Notes under the pieces: model-generated
Seen by the model: the letters and a program-made list of their open reading frames with translations, nothing else
What the model was told of the DNA's origin: nothing
Databases searched by the model: none
Assembly (NCBI GenBank): GCA_018399975.1
Contig: JAGYNU010000001.1
Location: 1-53,662, forward strand
Origin: Candidatus Omnitrophota bacterium
GTDB taxonomy: Bacteria > Omnitrophota > Gorgyraeia > M55B152
DNA: 53,662 nucleotides
Direction of reading: 5' to 3'
In this document: in pieces, positions 1-52,018 of the stretch
How the letters are laid out: each line of letters starts with the position of its first letter
Numbering within the stretch: the first letter of the stretch is position 1
Made by a program: the position numbers and the translations under genes

Positions 1-28
1 TAAAAAATTTTAAAAGGTTGGATAAAAT

Positions 29-2512
29 CTAACTTTTTTTAGAAGCTGCCTTTTGTTTTTTTGTTTCTGGCTCAAATTTTAAATCATCTTTTTTCTTTGG
101 CTTCGATACCTTCACATATGAAATATCTTCCGAGAATTCTCCTGATATCAACATTTCTGACATAGGGTCTTCTATATATCTTTGAATGGTTCTCTTTAAT
201 GGCCTAGCTCCATACATTTTATCAAAACCTTTCTCGATAAGAAATTCTTTGGCCTTTTGAGTAAGGTTTATTTCTAAGTCATGTTCTGCTATTCTTTTCT
301 TTACCTCTTTCAATTCTATTTCTAAAATATCATATAACTCCTCTTTAGTAAAAGACCTAAAAACTACTGTATCATCTAAACGATTTAAAAACTCCGGTTT
401 AAACGTATTGTTTATTTTATCCAGCAAATCCTGCTTCATACGTTGAAAACTTACTTCTGTTTGTTGAGATTTAAAACCTATAGAACCTTGTTTACGAAAC
501 AAATCCGCACCAACATTTGAAGTCATTATTAAAAGGGTATTACGAAAATCTACCTTTCTACCATAACTATCTGTAAGCCTACCATCTTCCAGTATCTGTA
601 ACAAAATATTAAATACATCTGGATGAGCTTTTTCTATTTCATCTAATAATACTACAGAATATGGCCTACGTCTTATACGCTCTGTTAACTGTCCTCCTTC
701 TTCATACCCAACATATCCAGGAGGAGCTCCAACTAATCTTGAAACATTAAACTTTTCCATATATTCAGACATATCTAATTGGATAAGCGCTTCTTCATCT
801 CCAAACAAAAATTCGGCCAATGCTCTGGCAAGTAAAGTTTTACCAACACCTGTAGGGCCTACAAATATAAATGAACCAATAGGCCTTTTAGGATTTTTTA
901 ACCCTGCACGCGAACGTCTAACAGCACGAGCAATAATACCTATTGCTTTTTCTTGCCCCACTACTCTTTTATATATACTTTCTTCCATATGAAGCAATTT
1001 TTCGCTTTCTTTTTCTTCTAATTTAAAAACAGGTATTCCTGTAGAATCAGAAACTATTATAGCGATATCTTCTTCTGTAACCGTAGGTTGTTCTTCATGT
1101 TTCTTTTTATCCCATTCTTCCTTTTCCTCATCTAATTGCTTTCTATATTTATTTTGTTTATCTCTCAATTTAGCAGCCTTTTCAAAATCTTGACCTTTTA
1201 TAGCCGCTTCTTTTTCTTTATCTACATGTTCAATTTCTTTTTCCAAATCTTTTATAGACTGAGGGACTGTCATTACAGACAATCTAGCTTTTGAACCAGC
1301 TTCATCAATTAAATCTATAGCTTTATCAGGCAAATACCTACCAGTAATATATCTATCAGAAAGTTTTGCAGCAGCTTCTAAGGTTTTATCTAACATTTTT
1401 ACCTTGTGATGGGCTTCATATCGATCTCTTAGCCCTTTTAAAATTTCTATAGTTTCTTCAATACTGGGAGGATTAACCATAATAGTTTGGAAACGTCTTT
1501 CTAAAGCAGAATCCTTTTCGATATGCTTTCTATACTCATCTAAAGTCGTAGCTCCTATACACTGCAATTCACCCCGTGATAAAGCAGGCTTTAAAATATT
1601 AGAAGCATCTATCGCACCTTCAGCACCGCCAGCTCCAACTAACGTATGTAACTCGTCTATAAACATGATAACATCTTCAGACTTCTTAATTTCTTCCATT
1701 ACAGCTTTTATCCTCTCCTCAAATTGCCCTCTATACTTTGTTCCCGCTACCATCAAACCTAAATCCATAGTAATAACTCTTCTATTTCTCAAAACTTCAG
1801 GAATGTCGTTATTAACAATTCTCTGTGCTAAACCTTCAACTATAGCAGTTTTCCCCACGCCTGCTTCACCTAAAAGAACAGGATTATTTTTAGTGCGCCT
1901 ACTTAAAATTTGTACCACCCTACCAATTTCTTTATCTCTCCCTATTACAGGGTCCAATTTGTGTTCTTTAGCCATAGCAGTAATATCTCTACCAAATGAA
2001 TCCAGTGCCGGAGTTTCGCTTTTAGTTTTTCCAGAATCTCCTAAATTATACATAGAAGCTCCTCCCCCCGTAGAAGAAGGGCCTAATAATCTAGTTATTG
2101 CTTTTCTAACTTTATCTATATCCAAATCCATATTCGAAAGTACACGACTGGCAATACCTTCTCCCTCTCTTACCAAACCTAATAATAAATGTTCTGTCCC
2201 AATATAATTATGTCCCATAGTACGAGCCTCTTCCATAGCTAATTCTATAATTTTCTTAGCCTTAGGAGTAAAAGGAATATCACCAGACACTATTGTGCTG
2301 GGTCCAGGTTTTACTAATTTCTCAATTTCTATTCTTAATTTATCTAAACTTAAACCCATTTTCCTAAGTACAGTGGCAGCTACCCCTTCACCTTCTTTTA
2401 TTAACCCCAATAATATGTGCTCGGTCCCAATATAATCATGATTAAACCTTTTTGCTTCTTCTTTTGCTAATAATATTACTTTACGAGCTCTTTCCGTAAA
2501 CCGGTTAAACAT
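29..2512 (-). CDS. clpC: ATP-dependent Clp protease ATP-binding subunit ClpC
   Basis: Duplicated Clp_N repeats (GTEHILLGL / GTEHLLLGL). Two AAA+ modules with Walker A GEAGVGKT and GPTGVGKT, and a UVR-like linker (FEKAAKLRD). Start taken at MFNRFTERARK, preceded by AGAGGTGA; the track ORF starts 7 codons earlier. Confidence 0.95.
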   Translation of the reverse strand: MFNRFTERARKVILLAKEEAKRFNHDYIGTEHILLGLIKEGEGVAATVLRKMGLSLDKLRIEIEKLVKPGPSTIVSGDIPFTPKAKKIIELAMEEARTMGHNYIGTEHLLLGLVREGEGIASRVLSNMDLDIDKVRKAITRLLGPSSTGGGASMYNLGDSGKTKSETPALDSFGRDITAMAKEHKLDPVIGRDKEIGRVVQILSRRTKNNPVLLGEAGVGKTAIVEGLAQRIVNNDIPEVLRNRRVITMDLGLMVAGTKYRGQFEERIKAVMEEIKKSEDVIMFIDELHTLVGAGGAEGAIDASNILKPALSRGELQCIGATTLDEYRKHIEKDSALERRFQTIMVNPPSIEETIEILKGLRDRYEAHHKVKMLDKTLEAAAKLSDRYITGRYLPDKAIDLIDEAGSKARLSVMTVPQSIKDLEKEIEHVDKEKEAAIKGQDFEKAAKLRDKQNKYRKQLDEEKEEWDKKKHEEQPTVTEEDIAIIVSDSTGIPVFKLEEKESEKLLHMEESIYKRVVGQEKAIGIIARAVRRSRAGLKNPKRPIGSFIFVGPTGVGKTLLARALAEFLFGDEEALIQLDMSEYMEKFNVSRLVGAPPGYVGYEEGGQLTERIRRRPYSVVLLDEIEKAHPDVFNILLQILEDGRLTDSYGRKVDFRNTLLIMTSNVGADLFRKQGSIGFKSQQTEVSFQRMKQDLLDKINNTFKPEFLNRLDDTVVFRSFTKEELYDILEIELKEVKKRIAEHDLEINLTQKAKEFLIEKGFDKMYGARPLKRTIQRYIEDPMSEMLISGEFSEDISYVKVSKPKKKDDLKFEPETKKQKAASKKS

Positions 2513-5735: not shown

Positions 5736-6913
5736 TCATATCTTATTGCATCAGCAGGATTAAGCTTAGAAGCACAAATAGCAGGATAAATAGAAGCTAT
5801 AACAGATAAAAATATAGCACTAAAAACAATAATTCCTATATCTAACCACTGAATTTGTACAGGTAAAGTATTAATATAATAAACATCCTCAGGTAAACTT
5901 ATAAATTGGTACTCTGAAAGAATATAACATATTCCCAGCCCTAAAACCCCTCCTAAAAAAGATCCGCCTATTCCAAATATTGTTCCTTGATAAGTGAAAA
6001 TTTTCCTTACAAATCTATTGGATGCCCCAAGAGACTTTAAAATACCTATATCTTTTGTTTTTTCCATAACTATCATTATTAAAGTTCCAACTATACTAAA
6101 ACAGGCCACCATAACAATTAAAGTTAAAATTACAAACATTGTAGTCTTTTCTAATTTCAAGGCGGAAAATAAATTTTTATTTCTATCCTGCCAAGACTTA
6201 ATTTGATAAGATAATCCTAAATCAAAAATTAAATTTCTTTTTATGTGATTAGTTTTATACGGGTCTTCAATTCTAACGCCAATGCCATTCACTAACCCCA
6301 CAGCATCAAAAATTTTTTGAGCAGAAAAAAGGTCAATAAATACCAAATTAACATCATATTCATACATTCCTGATTCAAATATTCCAACTAATGTAAAATC
6401 TACAGGCCTAGCGCTTAAAGGAGTAATCAATTTTACTTTATCTTTTAAACTAATACCTATCTGTTTTACTAACTCACTTCCTAAGACTATCTCAAAATTA
6501 TTATTAGGCAAAATACCTTTAACTATATACTTATCTATATTAGTAACTTTTTTTTCTCTATCAGCATCAATCCCTCTTAAAATAATCCCGCTAGCATATT
6601 CCTTGTAACGTATAATACCTTCACCAAGAAGATAAGGAGATGCTGAAACAACCAACTCCTGATTTTGTATTTCATCTATAACTTGATTATAATCAAAGAT
6701 ACCTTCCAAAGATTCTATACTTAGATGAGGATAAGTGCCTATAATTTTTTCTTTTAATTCTTTTTCAAACCCGCCCATAACAGACAATACAACAATAAGC
6801 GACATAACTCCTAAGGCTATACCTATCATAGAAATTGCACTTATAAAAGAAACAAACTTACGGCCTGTTTTTCTCATTAAATATCTATATCCAATAAAAA
6901 ACTCTGTTTTCAT
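5732..6913 (-). CDS. lolC: lipoprotein-releasing system permease LolC/LolE family (FtsX/MacB-type)
   Basis: 393 aa with an N-terminal TM, a periplasmic domain and a C-terminal FtsX-like 3-TM bundle. Coupled to lolD. Confidence 0.85.
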   Translation of the reverse strand: MKTEFFIGYRYLMRKTGRKFVSFISAISMIGIALGVMSLIVVLSVMGGFEKELKEKIIGTYPHLSIESLEGIFDYNQVIDEIQNQELVVSASPYLLGEGIIRYKEYASGIILRGIDADREKKVTNIDKYIVKGILPNNNFEIVLGSELVKQIGISLKDKVKLITPLSARPVDFTLVGIFESGMYEYDVNLVFIDLFSAQKIFDAVGLVNGIGVRIEDPYKTNHIKRNLIFDLGLSYQIKSWQDRNKNLFSALKLEKTTMFVILTLIVMVACFSIVGTLIMIVMEKTKDIGILKSLGASNRFVRKIFTYQGTIFGIGGSFLGGVLGLGICYILSEYQFISLPEDVYYINTLPVQIQWLDIGIIVFSAIFLSVIASIYPAICASKLNPADAIRYE

Positions 6914-8732: not shown

Positions 8733-10496
8733 CTATACAAAGATTAATATAAAGAAAACCAAAAAACAAAAATATACAAATATATCCCCGTACTTTTGAT
8801 AAAATGTATCGATATCTACAATTTTTATACTTTCAGTATTATATCCGGATATAAATATTTCTTCTCCTGCATCAGATTTAACTTTACCATAAACTTCACC
8901 TATAGGAGATATATAACCTGAAATACCTGTATTGGCAACTCTTACTGCAGAAACTCTATTTTCAACTGCTCTAAAAACCAGAGCTTGTAAATGTTGGGAT
9001 ACCTCTCCTGATTTTTTATACCAGGAATCCTCGGAAATATTTACGATAAAATTAGAACCTTTTTTAATAAATTTCCTTACTAATCTTGGAAAAATATCTT
9101 CATAACAAATTAAAGTATTAAATTTATTCTCATTTAAATTAAAAATTGTAAATTTATCACCTGCAGTAAAATTACCAGATTCAAAAACGTCATAAACAAA
9201 TGGAAAATACTTGGCAAAAGGAAAATATTCTCCAAAAGGCACAAGATGAATTTTATCGTATCTTTCTTTTGTTTTCCCTGTTTTTGAAAAATAAACTGCA
9301 CTGTTATAAAATTTATTTGTTTCTATATCTTTCCAGGCAGCTCCCACAAGAATAGAAACTTTTATATCTACAGCACATTTTTCTATACTATCTTTCATCC
9401 AATGGTTTTCATCTATATAATCAGGTACAGATGTTTCAGGCCATACAATTAAATCTGGATTATCCAAAGATGCCATGTATGTTAAATTAAGATACTCATT
9501 CAATATGCTATATTTAAAATCCCCACCCCATTTTTCATCTGCTGGAAAATTACCTTGTACAACAGAAACTTTAAGCGAAGAGAAATCTCGCGAATTTAAA
9601 TAATCTATTCTATTTTGTCCATAAATTAAAACACCAACTATGCAAAAAACAGATAACAGAAAACAGATAACAGAAGAAAAAAAATCTTCTCCGAAGTTTG
9701 TCTTACGATTTCCGTACCCCAATATTAATTTAATAATATAAAATATAGATACATTAACAAAAACTATTAAAAATGATATTCCATAAACACCCGTTATATC
9801 TGCTATTTGAATCAAAGGCAAAATTTTATACTGAGAATAGCCTAAAAGGGCCCAGCTAAAACCTGTAAAAAGATAACTGCGAATAAATTCCAAAATAACC
9901 CAAAAACTAGATAGGAATAAAATACTTAGAAAAAGTGAAGTTCCGCGGTTTAACAGCCGTGTCATTTTTACATTTTCCGGCAAAATCCCTATCTTGCGGG
10001 CAGGCCCGCCGTGGCGGGCAGACAAACGTTGAATCATATATGCCACAAGGCGTTGACGGATACCCTTTTCGCATTTATCAACGTCTTTACAGACGTGTCT
10101 TTCTGCGAAGGCGGGTAAAAAAAAACCAAATCCAAAAATACCAAAATATATAGAAAGATAAAGAATAAGGAAAATACATCCTGAAACAGTAACAAAATTT
10201 ATCCAATAAATCGTTCCTGCCCAGAAAACAAAACCGAAAAGATAGGATAACCAAAATGTTTGCTTCCAATTTTTATTTTCAATGGCAAATAAAAATGGAA
10301 TAAAACTAACCCAAACAAACCAACTAATTTCTGAATTAGGAAAAGATAAAATAAGTAATATAGAACTTAATAATACTAAAAATATACTCACATTCATACC
10401 TAAGATTATATCATGTAATAGAAAAATAAAAAGGGCAGGATAAAAGAAAAGAAAATTAAGATAAGAAACGATCAACCATATTTTGGATAGCAACAA
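8733..10496 (-). CDS. lnt: apolipoprotein N-acyltransferase Lnt carrying an in-frame GC-rich insert
   Basis: Polytopic N-terminus with the EFIRSYLFTGFSWALLGYSQ motif, then a C-terminal nitrilase/CN-hydrolase domain (VVQGN, WPETS, LICYEDIFP). An alternative start at MNVSIF (10397) would avoid the overlap with secA. About 59 codons (roughly 9936-10116) come from a repeat element. Confidence 0.8.
   Translation of the reverse strand: MLLSKIWLIVSYLNFLFFYPALFIFLLHDIILGMNVSIFLVLLSSILLILSFPNSEISWFVWVSFIPFLFAIENKNWKQTFWLSYLFGFVFWAGTIYWINFVTVSGCIFLILYLSIYFGIFGFGFFLPAFAERHVCKDVDKCEKGIRQRLVAYMIQRLSARHGGPARKIGILPENVKMTRLLNRGTSLFLSILFLSSFWVILEFIRSYLFTGFSWALLGYSQYKILPLIQIADITGVYGISFLIVFVNVSIFYIIKLILGYGNRKTNFGEDFFSSVICFLLSVFCIVGVLIYGQNRIDYLNSRDFSSLKVSVVQGNFPADEKWGGDFKYSILNEYLNLTYMASLDNPDLIVWPETSVPDYIDENHWMKDSIEKCAVDIKVSILVGAAWKDIETNKFYNSAVYFSKTGKTKERYDKIHLVPFGEYFPFAKYFPFVYDVFESGNFTAGDKFTIFNLNENKFNTLICYEDIFPRLVRKFIKKGSNFIVNISEDSWYKKSGEVSQHLQALVFRAVENRVSAVRVANTGISGYISPIGEVYGKVKSDAGEEIFISGYNTESIKIVDIDTFYQKYGDIFVYFCFLVFFILIFV
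9936..10116. repeat. GC-rich modular hairpin element inserted in-frame in lnt
   Basis: About 180 nt at roughly 50% GC inside an approximately 25% GC gene. It shares TTCTGCGAAGGCGG with 20382-20395, AAATCCCT...GGGCAGG with 27855-27871, and a CCGCGG-containing hairpin module with 20362-20379. Confidence 0.7.
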
Positions 10497-13270
10497 TTCT
10501 TATACTTTTTTCCACTCCCGCAAGGGCAGGGATCATTACGACCAATCTTTCTTCCTTTTCGGCGATATGGTTTAGGTTTGCCTTCTTCCTTACCAGATTG
10601 AGTAAATACAGAAGGATTTTTTTGTGTATGGGATATTGCCTTATCCAAACCTGTCTTTTTCTCTCTAACTCTATCTGTAAGAGATTCAAATTCAGGATGA
10701 GTTTGATGCATATCAACAGATTCAAACACACCTTTTATAGGCCTTTCCTCAGCAGGTTTCATTTTAATCAATATTTCTGAAGTATCTTCTTTAATTTTAT
10801 CAGCCATATGGGTAAACATCATATATCCTTCATGTTGATATTCTACTAAAGGATCTCTCTGCCCATATGCCCTAAGCCCTATCCCTTCTCTTAAACTATC
10901 CATAGCATACAAATGGTCTTTCCATTTAGAATCTATCATATGAAGCATGACTACACGCGACATATAATCCATCCTATCCGAACCTATAGACTTTTTTCTA
11001 TCTTCATACATATTTGTTAGTTCAACATAAAGTAAATCTATTAATTTTTCAAAAGACGGTATATTATCTTTTATATCAAATCCCGTTTTTATTAAAATAC
11101 CTTCTATATCTATATAGAACTTATTCTTAAAATATTCAGAAAGACCATTAAAATCCCATTGATGAACATCAACTTCGGGATTTATATATGTCTCTACTCC
11201 AATATTAACTACATCATCTATTATTTCTTTAATATGGTCATCTATTTTTTCTTTTAATAAAATTTTTTTTCTTTCTTTGTATATTTCTTCACGCTGTCTA
11301 TTCATTACATTATCATATTCCAACAACTGTTTTCTTATCTGAAAATTCTGATTCTCTACCCTTTTTTGAGCAGTTTCAATAGCTTTAGTCACTAAAGGAT
11401 GTTTAATCTCCTGGCCCTCTTCAATGCCTAATCTATCATAAACCCTAGCAATTCTATCTGAACCAAATATTCTCAACAAATCGTCTTCCAACGATAGAAA
11501 AAATTGAGAGGAACCTGGATCCCCCTGTCTACCTGCTCTACCACGCAATTGATTATCTATACGTCTTGCTTCATGTCTTTCAGTACCAATTATATGGAGG
11601 CCCCCTAATTTTACCACTTCATTATGTTCCTCATCTGTTTTCTTTTTTACTTCATTAAATAATTTTTCATAATCATCTTTAGATATTTCATCAATATCTT
11701 TTTGCTCTATTTTAAAATTCTTTTTAACTAGAAACTCAGGATTTCCCCCTAACAAAATATCTGTACCTCTACCAGCCATGTTCGTAGCAATCGTTACAGC
11801 TTTATATCTTCCAGCCTGCGCTACTATATTAGCTTCTCTTTCGTGATACTTAGCATTTAAAACATTATGTTTAATACCTTTTTTATTTAATAATCCACTT
11901 AAAACTTCAGATTTCTCTATAGAAACTGTCCCTACAAGTATAGGCCTGCCTTCTTTATTTAATTTATCTATATTTTCAACTAAAGCACTAAATTTTTCTT
12001 TTTCTGTTTTATAAATGATATCAGGATAGTTTTTTCTTATTAAAGGTTCATTTGTAGGAACAACCAACACATCCAGATTATAAATTTTACTAAATTCTTC
12101 AGCTTCGGTAGCAGCTGTTCCTGTCATACCAGCTAATTTGTTATACATCTTAAAAAAGTTTTGAAATGTAATAGTAGCCAAAGTTTGGTTTTCTCTTTCT
12201 ATCTTAACATTTTCCTTAGCTTCTATAGCTTGATGCAACCCATCGCTCCATCTTCTACCTGGCATAAGTCTTCCAGTAAACTCATCGACAATTAGAACTT
12301 TACCATCTTTGATCATATAATCCTTATCTCTTTTAAATAATTCATGTGCCTTAAGAGCTTGATTAACATGATGCTTATAATCCATGGTTGACAAACTGTG
12401 TAAGGAATCTACTCCTAAAAGTTTAGCAGATTTTTCCTCCCCCTGTTCTGTTAAATATGCATTATGATGTTTTTCATCTACTATATAATCTCCTGTTTCT
12501 TCCTTAGTCATTTCATTTCTGTAACCTTTCTTTAACATGGCTATAATCTTATCAACTTTATAATATTTATCTGTAGATTCTTCAGCAGGCCCAGAAATAA
12601 TAAGAGGAGTTCTTGCTTCATCTATAAGTATACTATCAACTTCATCTAAAATAGCATAATTAAGCTCTCTTTGAACCATATGCTTTTTATGAACTGCCAT
12701 ATTGTCCCGTAGATAATCAAAACCAAATTCATTATTAGTTCCATAAACAATATCACTGTTATAAGCTTTTTTCCTTTCATCAGGCATCATATCATGCTGT
12801 ATTACTCCAACAGTTAATCCCAAAAATTCATATATTGGGCCCATCCATTCTCTATCCCTTCTGGCTAAATAATCATTAACTGTAATGATATGAACTCCTT
12901 TCCCTGTTAAAGCATTAAGATAAGCAGATAAAGTAGCTACTAAAGTTTTACCTTCCCCTGTTACCATTTCTGCAATCATTCCCCTATGTAATGCTATGCC
13001 CCCGATAAGCTGCACATCAAAATGTCGCATTCTAACAGTTCGTTTTGCTACTTCTCTTACTACAGCAAAACTTTCAACTAAAATATCATCTAAGGTATCT
13101 TTTTCTTTTAAACGGGATTTAAACTCTTCTGTCTTGGATTTCAATTGTTCATCTGATAAAGACTGAATTTTTTTTTCAAATTCATTTATTTCATTTACCA
13201 AAGGTTGCATCTTTTTTAACATCCTTTGATTTCTAGTTCCAATTATTTTTCTTAATATAAAATTAAACAT
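10472..13270 (-). CDS. secA: preprotein translocase ATPase SecA
   Basis: DEAD-like motor motifs (MVTGEGKTLVA, LDEVDSILIDEARTPLIISG, TNMAGRGTDI) and a C-terminal zinc motif CPCGSGKKYKNCC. Start chosen at MFNFILRKIIGTRN by analogy with the canonical N-terminus. Confidence 0.95.
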   Translation of the reverse strand: MFNFILRKIIGTRNQRMLKKMQPLVNEINEFEKKIQSLSDEQLKSKTEEFKSRLKEKDTLDDILVESFAVVREVAKRTVRMRHFDVQLIGGIALHRGMIAEMVTGEGKTLVATLSAYLNALTGKGVHIITVNDYLARRDREWMGPIYEFLGLTVGVIQHDMMPDERKKAYNSDIVYGTNNEFGFDYLRDNMAVHKKHMVQRELNYAILDEVDSILIDEARTPLIISGPAEESTDKYYKVDKIIAMLKKGYRNEMTKEETGDYIVDEKHHNAYLTEQGEEKSAKLLGVDSLHSLSTMDYKHHVNQALKAHELFKRDKDYMIKDGKVLIVDEFTGRLMPGRRWSDGLHQAIEAKENVKIERENQTLATITFQNFFKMYNKLAGMTGTAATEAEEFSKIYNLDVLVVPTNEPLIRKNYPDIIYKTEKEKFSALVENIDKLNKEGRPILVGTVSIEKSEVLSGLLNKKGIKHNVLNAKYHEREANIVAQAGRYKAVTIATNMAGRGTDILLGGNPEFLVKKNFKIEQKDIDEISKDDYEKLFNEVKKKTDEEHNEVVKLGGLHIIGTERHEARRIDNQLRGRAGRQGDPGSSQFFLSLEDDLLRIFGSDRIARVYDRLGIEEGQEIKHPLVTKAIETAQKRVENQNFQIRKQLLEYDNVMNRQREEIYKERKKILLKEKIDDHIKEIIDDVVNIGVETYINPEVDVHQWDFNGLSEYFKNKFYIDIEGILIKTGFDIKDNIPSFEKLIDLLYVELTNMYEDRKKSIGSDRMDYMSRVVMLHMIDSKWKDHLYAMDSLREGIGLRAYGQRDPLVEYQHEGYMMFTHMADKIKEDTSEILIKMKPAEERPIKGVFESVDMHQTHPEFESLTDRVREKKTGLDKAISHTQKNPSVFTQSGKEEGKPKPYRRKGRKIGRNDPCPCGSGKKYKNCCYPKYG

Positions 13271-13291
13271 AATTTGGTTAAATAGGAACAT

Positions 13292-18694: not shown

Positions 18695-19660
18695 TTATGC
18701 AATCAAACTCATTATAAACCCTTCAAGAGCTAATTTCTCAGATACATTACTTTTTTTTATTTCTTCATCAATATAAGATAAATATTTTACTGCAATCTTT
18801 ATATCTGTTAAACTAAAATTACGCACTTGAAAAATAAATTTGTCGGAAAAATATCTATTTATACCTAAACACTTTGTTACCTGATAAGAATTATATCCTT
18901 GCTTTATTAAAACTTTTGCCCTTAACATTCTTTTTAATTGCCAAGCTAAAGTTCCTATTATCTTAACTACACTTTCTTTATAATCAAACATCCGATCTAA
19001 TATTTGAGTCACAAGATTTATATCTTTACTACAAATACAATCTATAAGCTTAAAAACGTTATATTGGACATTATTTTCTACTAATCTATCAATATGTTTA
19101 ATATTAATATTTTCACCGTGGCTATATAAAATTAACTTATTTATTTCATTATCTAAACTTAAAAGGTCTATATCCGCTTTTTCTATCAGCATAGAAACTG
19201 CGTCATAAGAAATAATCTTTCCGGATTTCTTTTTAACATTTTCTAATATCCAATCATGAAGTTTTTTACCTTTTAAAGGGTCACATTTTACCTTTTTTAC
19301 ATCTTTTAATCTTGATAATTTAGTTAAAAATGCAGTATTTGCATCTTCAGGACTTGTAACTAAAATAATAATACTTTTATCAGGAATAATTTTTAAAAAA
19401 TCTAAAAAAATTTTTTGAGAAGATTTCGGAAGTTTATCTATATTTTTAATTATACTGACACGGTATTTATTATACGAAGGGAAAAGCGAGGCATTACTAG
19501 TAATACAAGAAATGTTATCTTCGTCAGCAAAATATGTTTCAAAATTTATCCAATCAGATTTACCCTCTAAAAATCGAGACTTAATCTCTTTTAAATACTG
19601 ATTTTTAAGAAAAGTTTCTTTTCCTCTTATGAAATATAAATTGGGTAAGGAATTTACCAT
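18695..19660 (-). CDS. holA: DNA polymerase III delta subunit
   Basis: 321 aa. Length and position (directly downstream of lptE, as in many bacteria) fit holA, and the sequence looks like a degenerate AAA+-like delta fold. Motif support is weak. Confidence 0.65.
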   Translation of the reverse strand: MVNSLPNLYFIRGKETFLKNQYLKEIKSRFLEGKSDWINFETYFADEDNISCITSNASLFPSYNKYRVSIIKNIDKLPKSSQKIFLDFLKIIPDKSIIILVTSPEDANTAFLTKLSRLKDVKKVKCDPLKGKKLHDWILENVKKKSGKIISYDAVSMLIEKADIDLLSLDNEINKLILYSHGENINIKHIDRLVENNVQYNVFKLIDCICSKDINLVTQILDRMFDYKESVVKIIGTLAWQLKRMLRAKVLIKQGYNSYQVTKCLGINRYFSDKFIFQVRNFSLTDIKIAVKYLSYIDEEIKKSNVSEKLALEGFIMSLIA

Positions 19661-20196
19661 TGAACTACTGTTTTTTCCACCACTCTACGAGCTAAATCAT
19701 CTACAGCTTCACCAACTGCTTCAGTTTCGGTCTTAGCTAATGCACCTGTTAAAAAATAAGTCGTATCTCCTATCACTTTATCTTCCCAAACAATTTCATT
19801 CTTTTCTAAATCCTCCACTTTACAATCAATTACTATGGATAATCTGTACTCTTCTACATTATCACCATCATATCTTAAGGGTTGTTTTATATAATTTACC
19901 AAATTACCTGTTAAAACTATATCAGACATTTCTTTATCATCTGATAACTGCAAACTTCCTTCTAATACAAATCTATTTTCCACAGCTTCAACAATATCAT
20001 TTTCCAATCCTGGAAAATAAGAAGAACTATCGCGTTCGTTTTTTGTAAATTCAATTCTGTTTTTAAAATTCTCAACATATATATTTTTCATATAAGAAGG
20101 TAGATTTGAATGAAAAGTATATCCACAACCTAAAAAAGTAGTAAGCAACAAGCAAAAAGTAAAAAGTAAAAATTTTTTTAACATATAATTATTCAT
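19654..20196 (-). CDS. lptE: LPS-assembly lipoprotein LptE-like
   Basis: Lipoprotein signal peptide with lipobox (LLLTTFLGCGY) once the start is moved to MNNYMLKK or MLKKF. The lptE-holA linkage is typical. The track ORF's N-terminal 36 codons run into a GC-rich repeat and are not counted as coding. Confidence 0.6.
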   Translation of the reverse strand: MNNYMLKKFLLFTFCLLLTTFLGCGYTFHSNLPSYMKNIYVENFKNRIEFTKNERDSSSYFPGLENDIVEAVENRFVLEGSLQLSDDKEMSDIVLTGNLVNYIKQPLRYDGDNVEEYRLSIVIDCKVEDLEKNEIVWEDKVIGDTTYFLTGALAKTETEAVGEAVDDLARRVVEKTVVQW

Positions 20197-20201
20197 TAAA
20201 T

Positions 20202-20515
20202 GGAACCCCACGGGGCAAGCCCTGTGAAAGATACTTTTGTATTTCACGGGGCAAACCCGTGGTACCTTTATGTACCCGTCTTCGCCGAGGTTATCCGCCA
20301 ACACATTTAGGTGGCTCCTTCATCTGGTAACATCTCGCCGAAGCATAACTTCCGCATTCATCCACGGGTAAACCCGCGGTTTTCTGCGAAGGCGGATAAA
20401 ACTACAATTAACAAAATTCAAGATGAGCTTATCGGTAAATCAGCATATCAAATAAGAAATCTAATTTATCCTGATAATCTGACGTTCCTGCCTGCCGACA
20501 GGCAGGTTTCCCATT
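20202..20515. repeat. intergenic cluster of GC-rich hairpin modules
   Basis: Three copies of CACGGG-(G)NAA-(A)CCCGYG hairpins (20208-20226, 20245-20262, 20362-20379). An imperfect inverted pair CTTCGCCGAG / CTCGCCGAAG is also present, plus the palindrome CCTGCCTGCCGACAGGCAGG (20487-20506). Confidence 0.7.
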
Positions 20516-20584: not shown

Positions 20585-21544
20585 TTATTTTTTCTTAAAA
20601 ATAGTTAATTTCTTTATGGCTTTAATCGCCCATTTAGTATCAGGATATTTATTTACAACTTCTTCGTAATATATAACAGCACTATTTTTTTTATCTTGCT
20701 TTTCATAAAACTCTGCAATGCCAAAAACTTTCTCAGCTCTCTTTTCATTTAAACCATCTAATTCATCTTTTGCTTTCTTGGACAATTTGCTATTAGGATT
20801 CTTTTCTACAAACTGTTCAAATTCTTTTATAGCCTCATTTGTAGCTTCTTGGTCATAACTGGGATCTAAGGAAAACTTAAATGCACAATTAGCAGATTCA
20901 AATTCAGCTTTATCTATTAATTTACTGTTTGGAAAATTTTCTATCAAACTATTAAAAGCTTCTTTAGCTTTTTGATAATCGCCTTTCTTTTTATACGCAA
21001 TACCCAATTTATAATAAACCTTATCAATATTTTCTTTATAAGGAGAATTCTGAACTACTTTTTTAAAAACCTCAATAGCTCTATCCTCAGATGCAATAAC
21101 CGGCATTCCCCACAACTTACCTTTTTTACCTTCAAAAAATATATTTCCAATCTTAACCTGCCTTTCTATTACTTCATCCAATTCTTCAATATAAGGATAC
21201 TTATCTATAACTTTCTGATAGGCTCTAAAAGCTTCATAATACTTATCTAATGCTTCATAACTTCTACCTTTAAAATATTGGGAACGTGGAGCATATTCTG
21301 ATTTAGGATATGCATCAACTAATTTCTCAAACTCTTTTAAAGCAAGTTCATATTCAGAATTATCAAAAAATGACATAGCATGTTCGAATTGCTCTTCAGG
21401 AGTATCTTTAACAGCATACTTAGGATTAATCCATTTTCCAGATTCTGGAGTCCAAACCCAAAAAGAAAACAGATTAGAAGAAAAACAAAACAATAATATA
21501 AAAACCAAAATTAAAGAAAAAATAATTTTTTTTAGGTTAAACAT
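20585..21544 (-). CDS. bamD: outer membrane protein assembly factor BamD-like (TPR lipoprotein/YfiO family)
   Basis: Signal peptide followed by repeated TPR-like units rich in Y/A/K (AYPKSEYAPRSQYFKG, NFPNSKLIDKAEFE, KYPDTKWA). Confidence 0.65.
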   Translation of the reverse strand: MFNLKKIIFSLILVFILLFCFSSNLFSFWVWTPESGKWINPKYAVKDTPEEQFEHAMSFFDNSEYELALKEFEKLVDAYPKSEYAPRSQYFKGRSYEALDKYYEAFRAYQKVIDKYPYIEELDEVIERQVKIGNIFFEGKKGKLWGMPVIASEDRAIEVFKKVVQNSPYKENIDKVYYKLGIAYKKKGDYQKAKEAFNSLIENFPNSKLIDKAEFESANCAFKFSLDPSYDQEATNEAIKEFEQFVEKNPNSKLSKKAKDELDGLNEKRAEKVFGIAEFYEKQDKKNSAVIYYEEVVNKYPDTKWAIKAIKKLTIFKKK

Positions 21545-26668: not shown

Positions 26669-27475
26669 TTATTCTGACCTTTTTTCAATCCGGATTGTAT
26701 CTCCAAGATATAAATCGATATTTGATTGAACTGCTTTTCCTGGAAATACTAAAATCAAACTAGGCTTTTCGGGAGGATTATTTTCTATACCCGGAAGTGG
26801 TGGATCTACTGCAACAACTTGTCTAGGCCCAGATATTCTTAATAATTTCTTTAAAGGAACAACTATTTCTTTTAATTCTTCAACTTCCTTGTTCTCTAAG
26901 TTTTCTATATAATGATAAAAATAAGGGTGATAAATACCTCTTTCATAAGGTTCATAACCTAACAAAACAGCATGTTCTAAGTCTATATTATCTTCTATCA
27001 CACCTTCTTGACCTCTTAATCCCCCGCCAATAAAAGAACGTAAAGGTGAATTTTCAACAAAACCATCTAATTTTAAAATAAGGTGCGTATAGCCTTCTTT
27101 TAATAAATCTTGCAATTTTCGTCCCTTTAATTCAATATACATTAACCCCTGTTGTCTATTTGGCTCCACCTTCCCTGAACCACTAATATGTAATAAATCC
27201 TTCTCTCGTTTTACAGTTAAAAAATCTGAAGTTGGTCCCAAAACTTCACCCACACCTAAACTTATGTCGAAAGCCGAAGAACTTATTTTAAATTCAATAT
27301 AATCTTTACCTTCACTAATTACAACACCATTATTTTTTCTTACTAAACGTAATACCGAATTTTTATAAATTTTAAAATCCCTACCCAAGATATCCACAAA
27401 CTCCCTTTCAGTTAAACTAAATATCAAACATACAATTAGACCAGCTACAATTAAGAATAATATTTTTCGTACCAT
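26669..27475 (-). CDS. membrane-anchored hypothetical protein
   Basis: 268 aa with a single N-terminal TM. A GAGGAG SD lies 6 nt upstream. No family recognised. Confidence 0.5.
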   Translation of the reverse strand: MVRKILFLIVAGLIVCLIFSLTEREFVDILGRDFKIYKNSVLRLVRKNNGVVISEGKDYIEFKISSSAFDISLGVGEVLGPTSDFLTVKREKDLLHISGSGKVEPNRQQGLMYIELKGRKLQDLLKEGYTHLILKLDGFVENSPLRSFIGGGLRGQEGVIEDNIDLEHAVLLGYEPYERGIYHPYFYHYIENLENKEVEELKEIVVPLKKLLRISGPRQVVAVDPPLPGIENNPPEKPSLILVFPGKAVQSNIDLYLGDTIRIEKRSE

Positions 27476-27783: not shown

Positions 27784-27880
27784 GAAATCCCCGTTCGGGA
27801 CAGGGATTTCACGTCGACAAATCCCTGTTCGGGACAGGGGGAATCTAAAATTCTAAATCCCTGCCGGCAGGCACGGCGAT
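27784..27880. repeat. tandem GC-rich palindromic units adjoining the transposase remnant
   Basis: AAATCCC(C/T)GTTCGGGACAGGG occurs twice, 34 nt apart, followed by AAATCCCTGCCGGCAGG. Each unit is self-complementary. Confidence 0.7.
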
Positions 27881-51793: not shown

Positions 51794-52018
51794 TTATGCT
51801 CTAACCATTTTAGAGCCACATTTGGGACATTTTCTTTCATAACAAGGTTGTCCTGCACCATGCGCAACTTTTGTCCCACAACTTGGACAAACACAGTCTC
51901 CACTAGGGCCTGCTCCAGGCCTATTGCCCCCTAAACGTCCTCTACCTCTACCTCCTCCAAAACCTCTACCACTTCCAGGACCTCGTCCTGCTGGGCCAGT
52001 TCCATCTCCAAATGGCAT
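51794..52018 (-). CDS. Gly/Arg-rich small protein with DUF5320-like N-terminus and C-terminal zinc ribbon
   Basis: MPFGDGTGPAGRGPGSGRG... followed by CVCPSCG...CPKCG. An AAGGGGGA SD lies upstream. Confidence 0.6.
   Translation of the reverse strand: MPFGDGTGPAGRGPGSGRGFGGGRGRGRLGGNRPGAGPSGDCVCPSCGTKVAHGAGQPCYERKCPKCGSKMVRA

Follow-up and report, generated by a model that had tools for sequence, protein, structure and literature searches.

A probable fossil of a gene-less IS200/IS605-type transposon lying in-frame in the lnt gene of a Candidatus Omnitrophota bacterium

Rickettsia palindromic elements (RPEs) are short mobile repeats that lie in-frame in housekeeping genes and add a peptide to the protein without destroying it. 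The insertion sequence IS608 has an external target, TTAC, at 19 nt 5' of its left hairpin, and an internal right cleavage site, 10 nt 3' of the right hairpin (PMC3201880). Guides located 5' of the hairpin feet (AAAG at the left) pair with the cleavage sites, and the element inserts 3' of TTAC without gain or loss of nucleotides, into the lagging-strand template (PMC3201880). The same logic and a TTCAC end motif have been described along with gene-less derivatives, the palindrome-associated transposable elements (PATEs), which often encode omega RNAs acting in trans (PMC10055086). Here, we analyse a stretch of 53,662 nt (hereafter the window) of a Candidatus Omnitrophota bacterium (contig JAGYNU010000001.1, assembly GCA_018399975.1), in which the lnt gene, encoding the apolipoprotein N-acyltransferase, is interrupted by a GC-rich block. 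We think it likely that this block is a fossil copy of a gene-less IS200/IS605-type transposon (a PATE), which is in-frame and would be read through.

The GC-rich block of lnt and its family

The window belongs to a contig of 30% GC whose minus strand holds nearly all genes. The lnt frame (1.76 kb, 587 codons, Table 1) is open from end to end. Its product matches LNT_N (4.3e-35, broken into two stretches) and CN_hydrolase (1.2e-26) in Pfam, and the Lnt entries of the PDB at 1e-30. The host gene thus encodes both the LNT_N membrane domain and a nitrilase-type domain with the Glu-Lys-Cys triad. An exact look-up of the protein sequence returned no record. The true start of lnt is uncertain: the database gene call begins at the ATG at 10397 (554 aa) and the longest frame at the TTG at 10496. 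With this TTG as its start, lnt would share 25 nt with the end of secA (10472..13291).

The GC content is 0.50-0.52 at positions 9950-10099 and about 0.25-0.30 on either side. The insert has 50.6% GC against 27.5% in the rest of lnt, and 48% against 17% at third codon positions. It consists of 60 codons that are stop-free in the lnt frame, and the only other frame open across it is an antisense one. The first-pass annotation, made from the sequence alone, had described a segment of about 180 nt and 50% GC interrupting the AT-rich lnt with the frame intact, and both the GC profile and the list of open reading frames (ORFs) agree with it. The block stood where it had been placed (9936-10116, about 59 residues), but the exact figures are 9935-10114 and 60 codons. 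The corresponding peptide, in the region LPAFAERHVCKDVDK...NRGTSL, amounts to about 60 extra residues.

We aligned the protein with its 120 best relatives. The turn preceding the EFIRSYLFTGFSW helix has five residues in 68 of the 120 and at most 23 in the others, but 57 in the window protein. This places the segment between a transmembrane helix and a conserved helix, as had been supposed. The comparison with orthologues had been proposed as a check, and the loop is absent in relatives, including the closest one (56% identity by BLASTP, 62% in the MAFFT alignment), which has the same SecA-Lnt-LysRS gene order as the window. A phmmer search with the 62-residue insert against 1.84 billion representative proteins returned no match.

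The block belongs to a family of dispersed elements. Using profile hidden Markov models built without the copies of the window, nhmmer matched 10119..9935 over the full length of the model (E = 6e-20) and identified a second copy at 20400..20249 (E = 4e-29). The profiles gave no third match in the window and none in the insert-free relative. The match over the full model and the alignment from end to end with other members show that the block of lnt is one complete copy. It had been read as a mosaic of modules drawn from two intergenic loci; only the one at 20.2-20.4 kb is related to it. On the minus strand, the lnt block starts with TTTTAC/CCGCCTTCGCAGAAAG (here and below, a slash marks the boundary of an element), a hairpin, and then GATAAATGCG. 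The island at 20.2-20.4 kb starts with TTTTAT/CCGCCTTCGCAGAAAA, a different but still pairing hairpin, and then GATGAATGCG.

A scan with gapped patterns found the family at more than 120 metagenome loci and at least 114 loci of species-representative genomes. The statistics on copies given below (n = 237 and its subsets) rest on the matches listed in these two scans. These matches include many Patescibacteria (Gottesman-, Lipton-, Harrison-, Roizman- and Curtissbacteria, Saccharibacteria, Peribacteria), as well as Omnitrophota, Desulfobacteraceae, Pirellulales, Phycisphaerae, Nitrospirae, Elusimicrobia, Coxiellaceae, Bacteroidetes, Acidobacteriota and Binatia. Among them, single metagenome-assembled genomes provided 6-13 or more contigs with copies. 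Some copies are nearly identical although their sites are unrelated, and many matches are at contig ends. The viral contigs gave no match with the first gapped pattern or with a broader one, and neither did the plasmid and phage collections in a distant-mode search. A 15-mer typical of the family had no match in the searchable literature. This IS608-like, gene-less family, which spans many uncultured phyla, was apparently undescribed until now.

The limits of similarity in the alignments of sub-families follow the scheme (T)TTAY/CCGCC ... hairpin-(A/G)GCT(T/C)CA(C/T)/, and copies finish with ...GCTTCAC, ...GCTCCAC or ...CAT. Copies delimited by both hairpins are 109-270 nt long. All paired copies have ends 109-234 nt apart, which leaves no room for a gene. 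One locus (L188, positions 1-240, minus strand) contains two copies head to tail, ...GGGGCTCCAC/CCGCCTTCGC..., with TTTA missing between them: the ...CTCCAC end motif of the first copy is the target of the second, which begins with CCGCC. This tandem shows that TTAC or TTAT is flanking host DNA and that the element extends from CCGCC to ...CA(C/T). The length is a multiple of three in 50 of the 94 delimited copies, where one third is expected; this excess is dominated by a few multi-copy sub-families and may have no meaning.

Table 1. Position of the features described in the text (L-numbers are fetched loci)
Feature	Position	Strand	Evidence
lnt (apolipoprotein N-acyltransferase) ORF	8733..10496	-	ORF list, Pfam, PDB Lnt matches
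Inserted element, TTAC-type copy, 180 nt	9935..10114	-	nhmmer, end-to-end family alignment, L188 tandem junction
TTAC target motif (left cleavage site), host flank	10115..10118	-	family flank counts, L188 tandem
Left guide tetranucleotide AAAG, directly 5' of left hairpin foot	10099..10102	-	target/guide table
Left subterminal hairpin, stem 10096-10091 with 10086-10081, loop GTAA	10079..10098	-	family alignment, predicted fold
Extra GC-rich internal segment, about 43-46 nt, with GCCCGCC/GGCGGGC self-complementary runs	9989..10034	-	alignment, inverted-repeat list
Right guide tetranucleotide AATG (family consensus GATG)	9963..9966	-	right guide/end-motif table
Right subterminal hairpin, decayed, holds the CCGCGG module	9943..9962	-	family alignment
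TCAC end motif (right cleavage site), last four bases of the element	9935..9938	-	family ends, L188 junction
Second copy, TTAT-type, 196 nt, intergenic	20200..20395	-	nhmmer, alignment with TTAT-type copies
TTAT target motif of second copy (guide AAAA)	20396..20399	-	sequence, target/guide table
In-frame copy, Radical_SAM domain of a B12-binding radical-SAM enzyme	L052 ~5904-6050	antisense to gene	
In-frame copy, DUF4012 protein	L086 2449-2579	antisense to gene	
In-frame copy, DUF6798 membrane protein	L089 2574-2746	antisense to gene	

Ends, targets and fold of the elements

The ends of the family have the anatomy of IS608, from which we borrowed the register of guide pairing. The 5' flank is TTAC in 117 of the 237 listed copies and TTAT in 85 (202 together). 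The consensus of the flank is TTTAY, and it is random beyond position -6. The left guide varies with the target: we counted 114 TTAC/AAAG and 85 TTAT/AAAA combinations, and only 2 and 0 crossed ones. When distinct flanks were counted, 110 + 81 matched and 6 + 0 were crossed. Every insertion event selects a new flank, so the match between target and guide does not result from shared ancestry but from guide-directed target choice. The right end of the family consists of a hairpin followed by AGCTTCAC, and there too the guide and the end motif correspond (GATG/TCAC 26, GGTG/CCAC 26, GATA/TCAT 21, GGTA/CCAT 4), pairing being retained at two independently varying positions.

The two subterminal hairpins are on the same strand and alike within each sub-family, e.g., CCGCCAACTTCAGTTGGCGG and CCGCCGACTTCAGTCGGCGG, or CCCCGTCCGGAAGGGCGGGG and CCCCGCGCGGAAGCGCGGGG, with spacings of 16 nt at the left and 8 nt at the right. 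The CCGCGG hairpin modules noticed in the first-pass annotation are these hairpins: in lnt it is that of the right end, at 20.36 kb that of the left end. There are no terminal inverted repeats, as the ends CCGCCTTCGC... and ...GAGCTTCAC lack complementarity, and none of 89 copies showed a target-site duplication (matching flanks with k >= 4). The element had been taken for a palindromic repeat, but its asymmetric ends, its TTAC flank, the lack of duplication and the two same-strand hairpins correspond to the IS200/IS605 design. The top strand of the element coincides with the G-rich strand of the flanking DNA at 97 loci versus 34, the GC skew being here a proxy for the direction of replication. 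Both copies of the window are on the G-rich, gene-rich minus strand.

We searched for the enzyme that mobilises the family. Clustering of the flanking ORFs revealed no shared protein family, nor any transposase, travelling with the listed copies. Pairing of left and right ends identified no autonomous parent, using a right-end-only profile that is too short to be sensitive and whose list of orphan ends is thus uninformative. Seven copies consisting only of the left half were, on inspection by eye, truncated and followed by ordinary host genes, with no parent element. Locus L139 has a truncated IS200-type Y1_Tnp gene (PF01797, 37.5 bits; 2032-2376, plus strand) about 190 nt from the left end of its copy. 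Upstream of this gene is a CCACGGCC-TTTG-GCCGTG (CCACGG-type) hairpin, with a different end sequence. This gene was matched by an IS608 TnpA probe, and the match was then confirmed by Pfam. A weak match of the same probe in the window was spurious, as it lies inside the lysyl-tRNA synthetase gene.

These results bear on the identity of the engine. It is unlikely that the same family was spread by a domesticated REP-associated tyrosine transposase (RAYT), or by some other enzyme, instead of the TnpA of an IS200/IS605 insertion sequence. RAYTs are reported to be Y1 enzymes acting on hairpin repeats (PMC2817692), and the lack of an autonomous parent among the approximately 237 listed copies speaks for such an engine, as does the copy number per genome, which can be high. 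However, the hairpins of the family are direct, not inverted as in REP doublets. The asymmetric ends are defined by a target motif and an end motif, and the TTAC/AAAG pair is that of IS608. Finally, copies enter genes and form tandems in the manner of insertion sequences. We infer that the mobilising enzyme was a TnpA.

The consensus fold of nine TTAC-type copies has 50 base pairs, 15 of which show compensatory changes. It comprises nested helices around each subterminal hairpin and two internal hairpins, with a core of five helices, and its G-U pairs are confined to one strand. The lnt copy has an extra internal segment at the third helix, which other TTAC-type copies lack. The self-complementary GCCCGCC runs previously noticed in lnt were found again among the inverted repeats, and they are within this segment. 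The lnt copy is also worn. It matches 76% of the well-conserved columns of the consensus (24% diverged), whereas other members match 85-96%, and it kept 35 of 49 consensus pairs, having lost 14. The left domain is well preserved (16 of 18 pairs; 6 of 8 in the left hairpin itself). The right-end domain kept 9 of 14 pairs, a fraction that amounts to 0.99 in other members. With its right hairpin decayed, the lnt copy is probably no longer mobile.

The fold raises the question of whether the family is primarily an RNA gene, e.g., an omega RNA scaffold for TnpB or IscB, the lnt copy being then relevant as RNA rather than as peptide. The fifty pairs with their 15 compensatory changes, the internal helices beyond what TnpA binding needs, the G-U pairs on one strand only, the strong conservation of the left block across phyla and the trans-acting omega RNAs often encoded by PATEs (PMC10055086) all go in this direction. 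Yet, the one-strand pairing is equally well explained by the structure of single-stranded DNA, and the conservation of the left block is in part a product of the search pattern. Rfam had no match in the whole window at the gathering threshold, and permissive searches with both window copies and five intact copies gave only chance-level matches (E > 0.2), with no group I or II intron, IStron, ribozyme, riboswitch or IS605-associated motif among them. Neither tnpB nor iscB was seen near the listed copies, and the lnt copy lost 14 of its 49 pairs. We thus find the RNA-gene explanation improbable; it could in any case coexist with the transposon model instead of displacing it. We also considered by eye whether the conserved left block is a k-turn, a hammerhead or a terminator, and dropped these readings given the anatomy of the family.

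A more specific idea, that the five-helix core is a guide-RNA scaffold recruiting TnpB or IscB in trans, is doubtful. The family would then consist of guide-RNA-only transposons crossing phyla, and the 3' flank of each copy would be the guide. The lnt mRNA would carry a guide aimed at its own empty site, thereby enforcing the retention of the insert.

The Lnt protein and the H4-H5 turn

The residues of Lnt that are invariant across 60 sequences are all retained, including E321, K382 and C431. The AlphaFold model of the protein has a mean predicted local distance difference test score (pLDDT) of 88.8; the insert, at 55-69, prolongs helices H4 and H5 in this model. It aligns at about residue 115 of the Lnt of Escherichia coli. 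This protein has eight helices and both termini in the cytoplasm, and its Arg123 marks the end of H5 on the cytoplasmic side (PMC5500888). Hence, the H4-H5 turn is exposed to the cytoplasm, whereas the active site is periplasmic. The composition of the 62-residue insert, with 13 Lys and Arg versus 5 Asp and Glu, fits the cytoplasmic side.

The chance that 60 codons stay open from composition alone is 0.054. Together with the need for a length that is a multiple of three, this indicates that the surviving copy was filtered by selection on lnt, a gene that we assume to be essential in this organism. Given that the frame is intact and the catalytic residues are conserved, the insert would be read through and translated, and the enzyme would be active. 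When the 180 nt were deleted in silico, no polar turn was left between H4 and H5 (FGFGFFLLFLSILF). Either the original codons of the turn disappeared once the element had inserted, or the turn is now provided by the insert itself.

An alternative for the gene itself is that the insertion killed lnt, the frame being open by luck, and that the cell uses another N-acyltransferase or none. Lnt is dispensable in some bacteria, and the probability of an open frame, although small, is not negligible. On the other hand, a frame of 587 codons is open in a genome of 30% GC, where stops arise easily. All the family-invariant residues are retained, and the frame is still intact in a copy that diverged at 24% of its conserved columns. 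Other lineages tolerate inserts in the same turn. We therefore consider an inactivated lnt very unlikely. Usual introns are longer than 180 nt, and inteins are far longer than 60 residues. Excision of the block from the transcript or the protein, in the manner of an intron or intein and with a normal turn in the mature protein, is hardly credible: some IS605-related elements, the IStrons, carry self-splicing introns according to one study (bioRxiv 2023.11.20.567912), and the RNA of the element is predicted to be structured, but Rfam had no group I or II intron or ribozyme match, the in-frame stop-free state is required by read-through and not by splicing, and most copies are intergenic.

Four of the 94 delimited copies lie within frames that continue without a stop over 70 codons or more to each side. 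Three of these frames are credible genes (Table 1) and the fourth looks spurious. A search with one antisense consensus peptide had no match. The profile of another antisense frame matched only 64 short protein clusters without domains (P0121-P0184, 45-114 aa). Most are unnamed, those with a name are called 'hypothetical protein', and they are translations of intergenic copies. Since only domain-less ORFs were found in this way, most copies must be intergenic and are sometimes miscalled as spurious ORFs. These 64 clusters are annotation artefacts.

The same turn of Lnt was colonised by other elements. Other Omnitrophota have unrelated, small GC-rich palindromes in-frame at this position, each with flanking direct repeats. 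Two of these lnt genes (loci L239 and L240, encoding P0008 and P0022) have a palindrome of about 54 nt, TCCTTCGACA(A/G)GCTCAGGAC...GTCGAAG. Its core is found in 31 of the 241 fetched loci, and a similar sequence was seen by eye inside some copies of the main element. Judging from the sequences, P0034 looks like an empty-site allele of P0022. A third gene (L241, encoding P0013) has a CCTGCCTTGCCGGCAGGCAGG hairpin in-frame in the turn, at about 1820-1850, with direct repeats CATCATCCATC. A hairpin of the same type, CCTGCCTGCCGACAGGCAGG, is found in the window at 20487-20506, downstream of the gene at 20585..21544. The H4-H5 turn is a permissive site in a gene otherwise intolerant of insertions. 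It takes inserts of 18-60 residues in nature, on the cytoplasmic side, which could guide the tagging or engineering of Lnt, a target for antibiotics.

A model of the insertion, the rest of the window and known systems

The transposon explanation can be spelled out as follows. The element would move in the form of single-stranded DNA. A Y1 (HUH) TnpA supplied in trans would bind the hairpin near each end and carry out both the cutting and the pasting. The four-base guides 5' of the hairpins would pair with the TTAC flank and with the last four bases of the element, thereby setting the cut sites, and insertion would occur 3' of TTAC with nothing duplicated. One copy would have landed after a TTAC in the codons of the H4-H5 turn of lnt. 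As this copy has 180 nt and is stop-free in the frame, lnt would have survived. The copy would now add about 60 residues with a positive charge to the cytoplasmic face of the enzyme, remote from the active site in the periplasm, and its right hairpin would have decayed after the insertion. The model predicts that the empty site reads ...GGTTTTTTTTTAC/TTTTTCTAAGT..., with TTAC retained and without duplication.

Several points weigh against this explanation. No cognate transposase was found and none is carried by the approximately 237 listed copies; the sole trace of a transposase near them, in L139, is truncated and outside the element. The co-varying internal helices exceed the needs of IS608, so that another process may be acting too. 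The strand bias rests on the GC skew of the flanks as a proxy for the direction of replication. Concerning the protein, translation and enzyme activity are deduced from the gene, the insert is modelled only at the pLDDT given above, and the ancestral site is not cleanly reconstructed, since the deletion leaves no polar turn.

The second copy of the window is better preserved. Of 40 consensus pairs it kept 34, its guides match, its right hairpin is duplicated, and its fold has a z-score of -4.8. Its closest kin among the listed TTAT-type copies is one from a metagenome-assembled genome of Omnitrophota. It ends 15 nt before the ATG of the downstream gene, at 20184, and thus makes up most of the region upstream of this gene. 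A mechanically called ORF (19654..20304) enters the copy from its GTG start. The motif TTCTGCGAAGGCGG, which lnt had been said to share with the region around 20382, is the left end of this copy (21-nt BLAST match within the window, E = 6.5e-4).

The link proposed between AAATCCCT...GGCAGG in lnt and position 27855, in contrast, is a short string shared by chance. No family profile matches at 27.8 kb, and the insert shares 139 8-mers with the rest of the window, which is within the range of shuffled sequences (mean 117, maximum 155). The profiles and the shuffle test rule out the hairpins at 27.8 kb as members of the family. They form a distinct array at 27785-27871, in the gap between the genes ending at 27475 and 27896: tandem 21-nt hairpins AAATCCC(C/T)GTTCGGGACAGGG, followed by the palindrome CCTGCCGGCAGG. 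They are absent from all 241 fetched loci and unrelated to the lnt element. Elsewhere in the window, the GC-rich island at 51794-52018 (minus strand) is a gene for a Gly/Arg-rich protein of 74 aa with two CxxC pairs (zinc-ribbon-like) and is not a repeat.

It is known that mobile DNA adds to proteins, and the insert of lnt is a clear new example. Here, the gain of protein sequence in a core enzyme of the envelope can be tied to a specific and well-understood transposition chemistry. The main value of these observations is in the breadth and regularity of a previously undescribed family and in the repeated colonisation of the Lnt turn. The family reaches the small genomes of Patescibacteria, and gene callers turn its copies into spurious 'hypothetical proteins'. 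Its natural TTAC/AAAG and TTAT/AAAA variants are ready test cases for guide-directed target choice.

How does the family compare with known systems? Like the Correia-type miniature inverted-repeat transposable elements of Neisseria and the REP/REPIN sequences, its members are small, non-autonomous, multi-copy and mostly intergenic, with GC-rich hairpins. Unlike them, they lack terminal inverted repeats and duplications, and their hairpins are direct. The lnt block had initially been likened to RPEs. This analogy stands for the outcome, as a mobile repeat entered an ORF, left the frame intact and added a loop, i.e., a peptide segment in a protein-coding gene. It fails for the kind of element: the lineage is another one, and instead of a single long palindrome there are asymmetric ends and a TTAC target. 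The distinction from RPEs is drawn on anatomy and host range only, and it was correctly anticipated that both lineage and repeat family would differ. In-gene copies are also a small minority in the family of the lnt element (4 of 94). The differences from IS608 are the spacings (16 and 8 nt instead of 19 and 10), the second sub-type (TTAT/AAAA), the co-varying core of five helices and the lack of a matching tnpA or tnpB among the listed copies. The family resembles IS608 and the PATEs as follows: it has an external TTAC, an AAAG left guide, an internal end motif with a second guide, same-strand hairpins, ends that are not inverted, insertion without duplication, a strand bias that may be of the lagging-strand type (judged by the GC-skew proxy) and gene-less copies that would be mobilised in trans.

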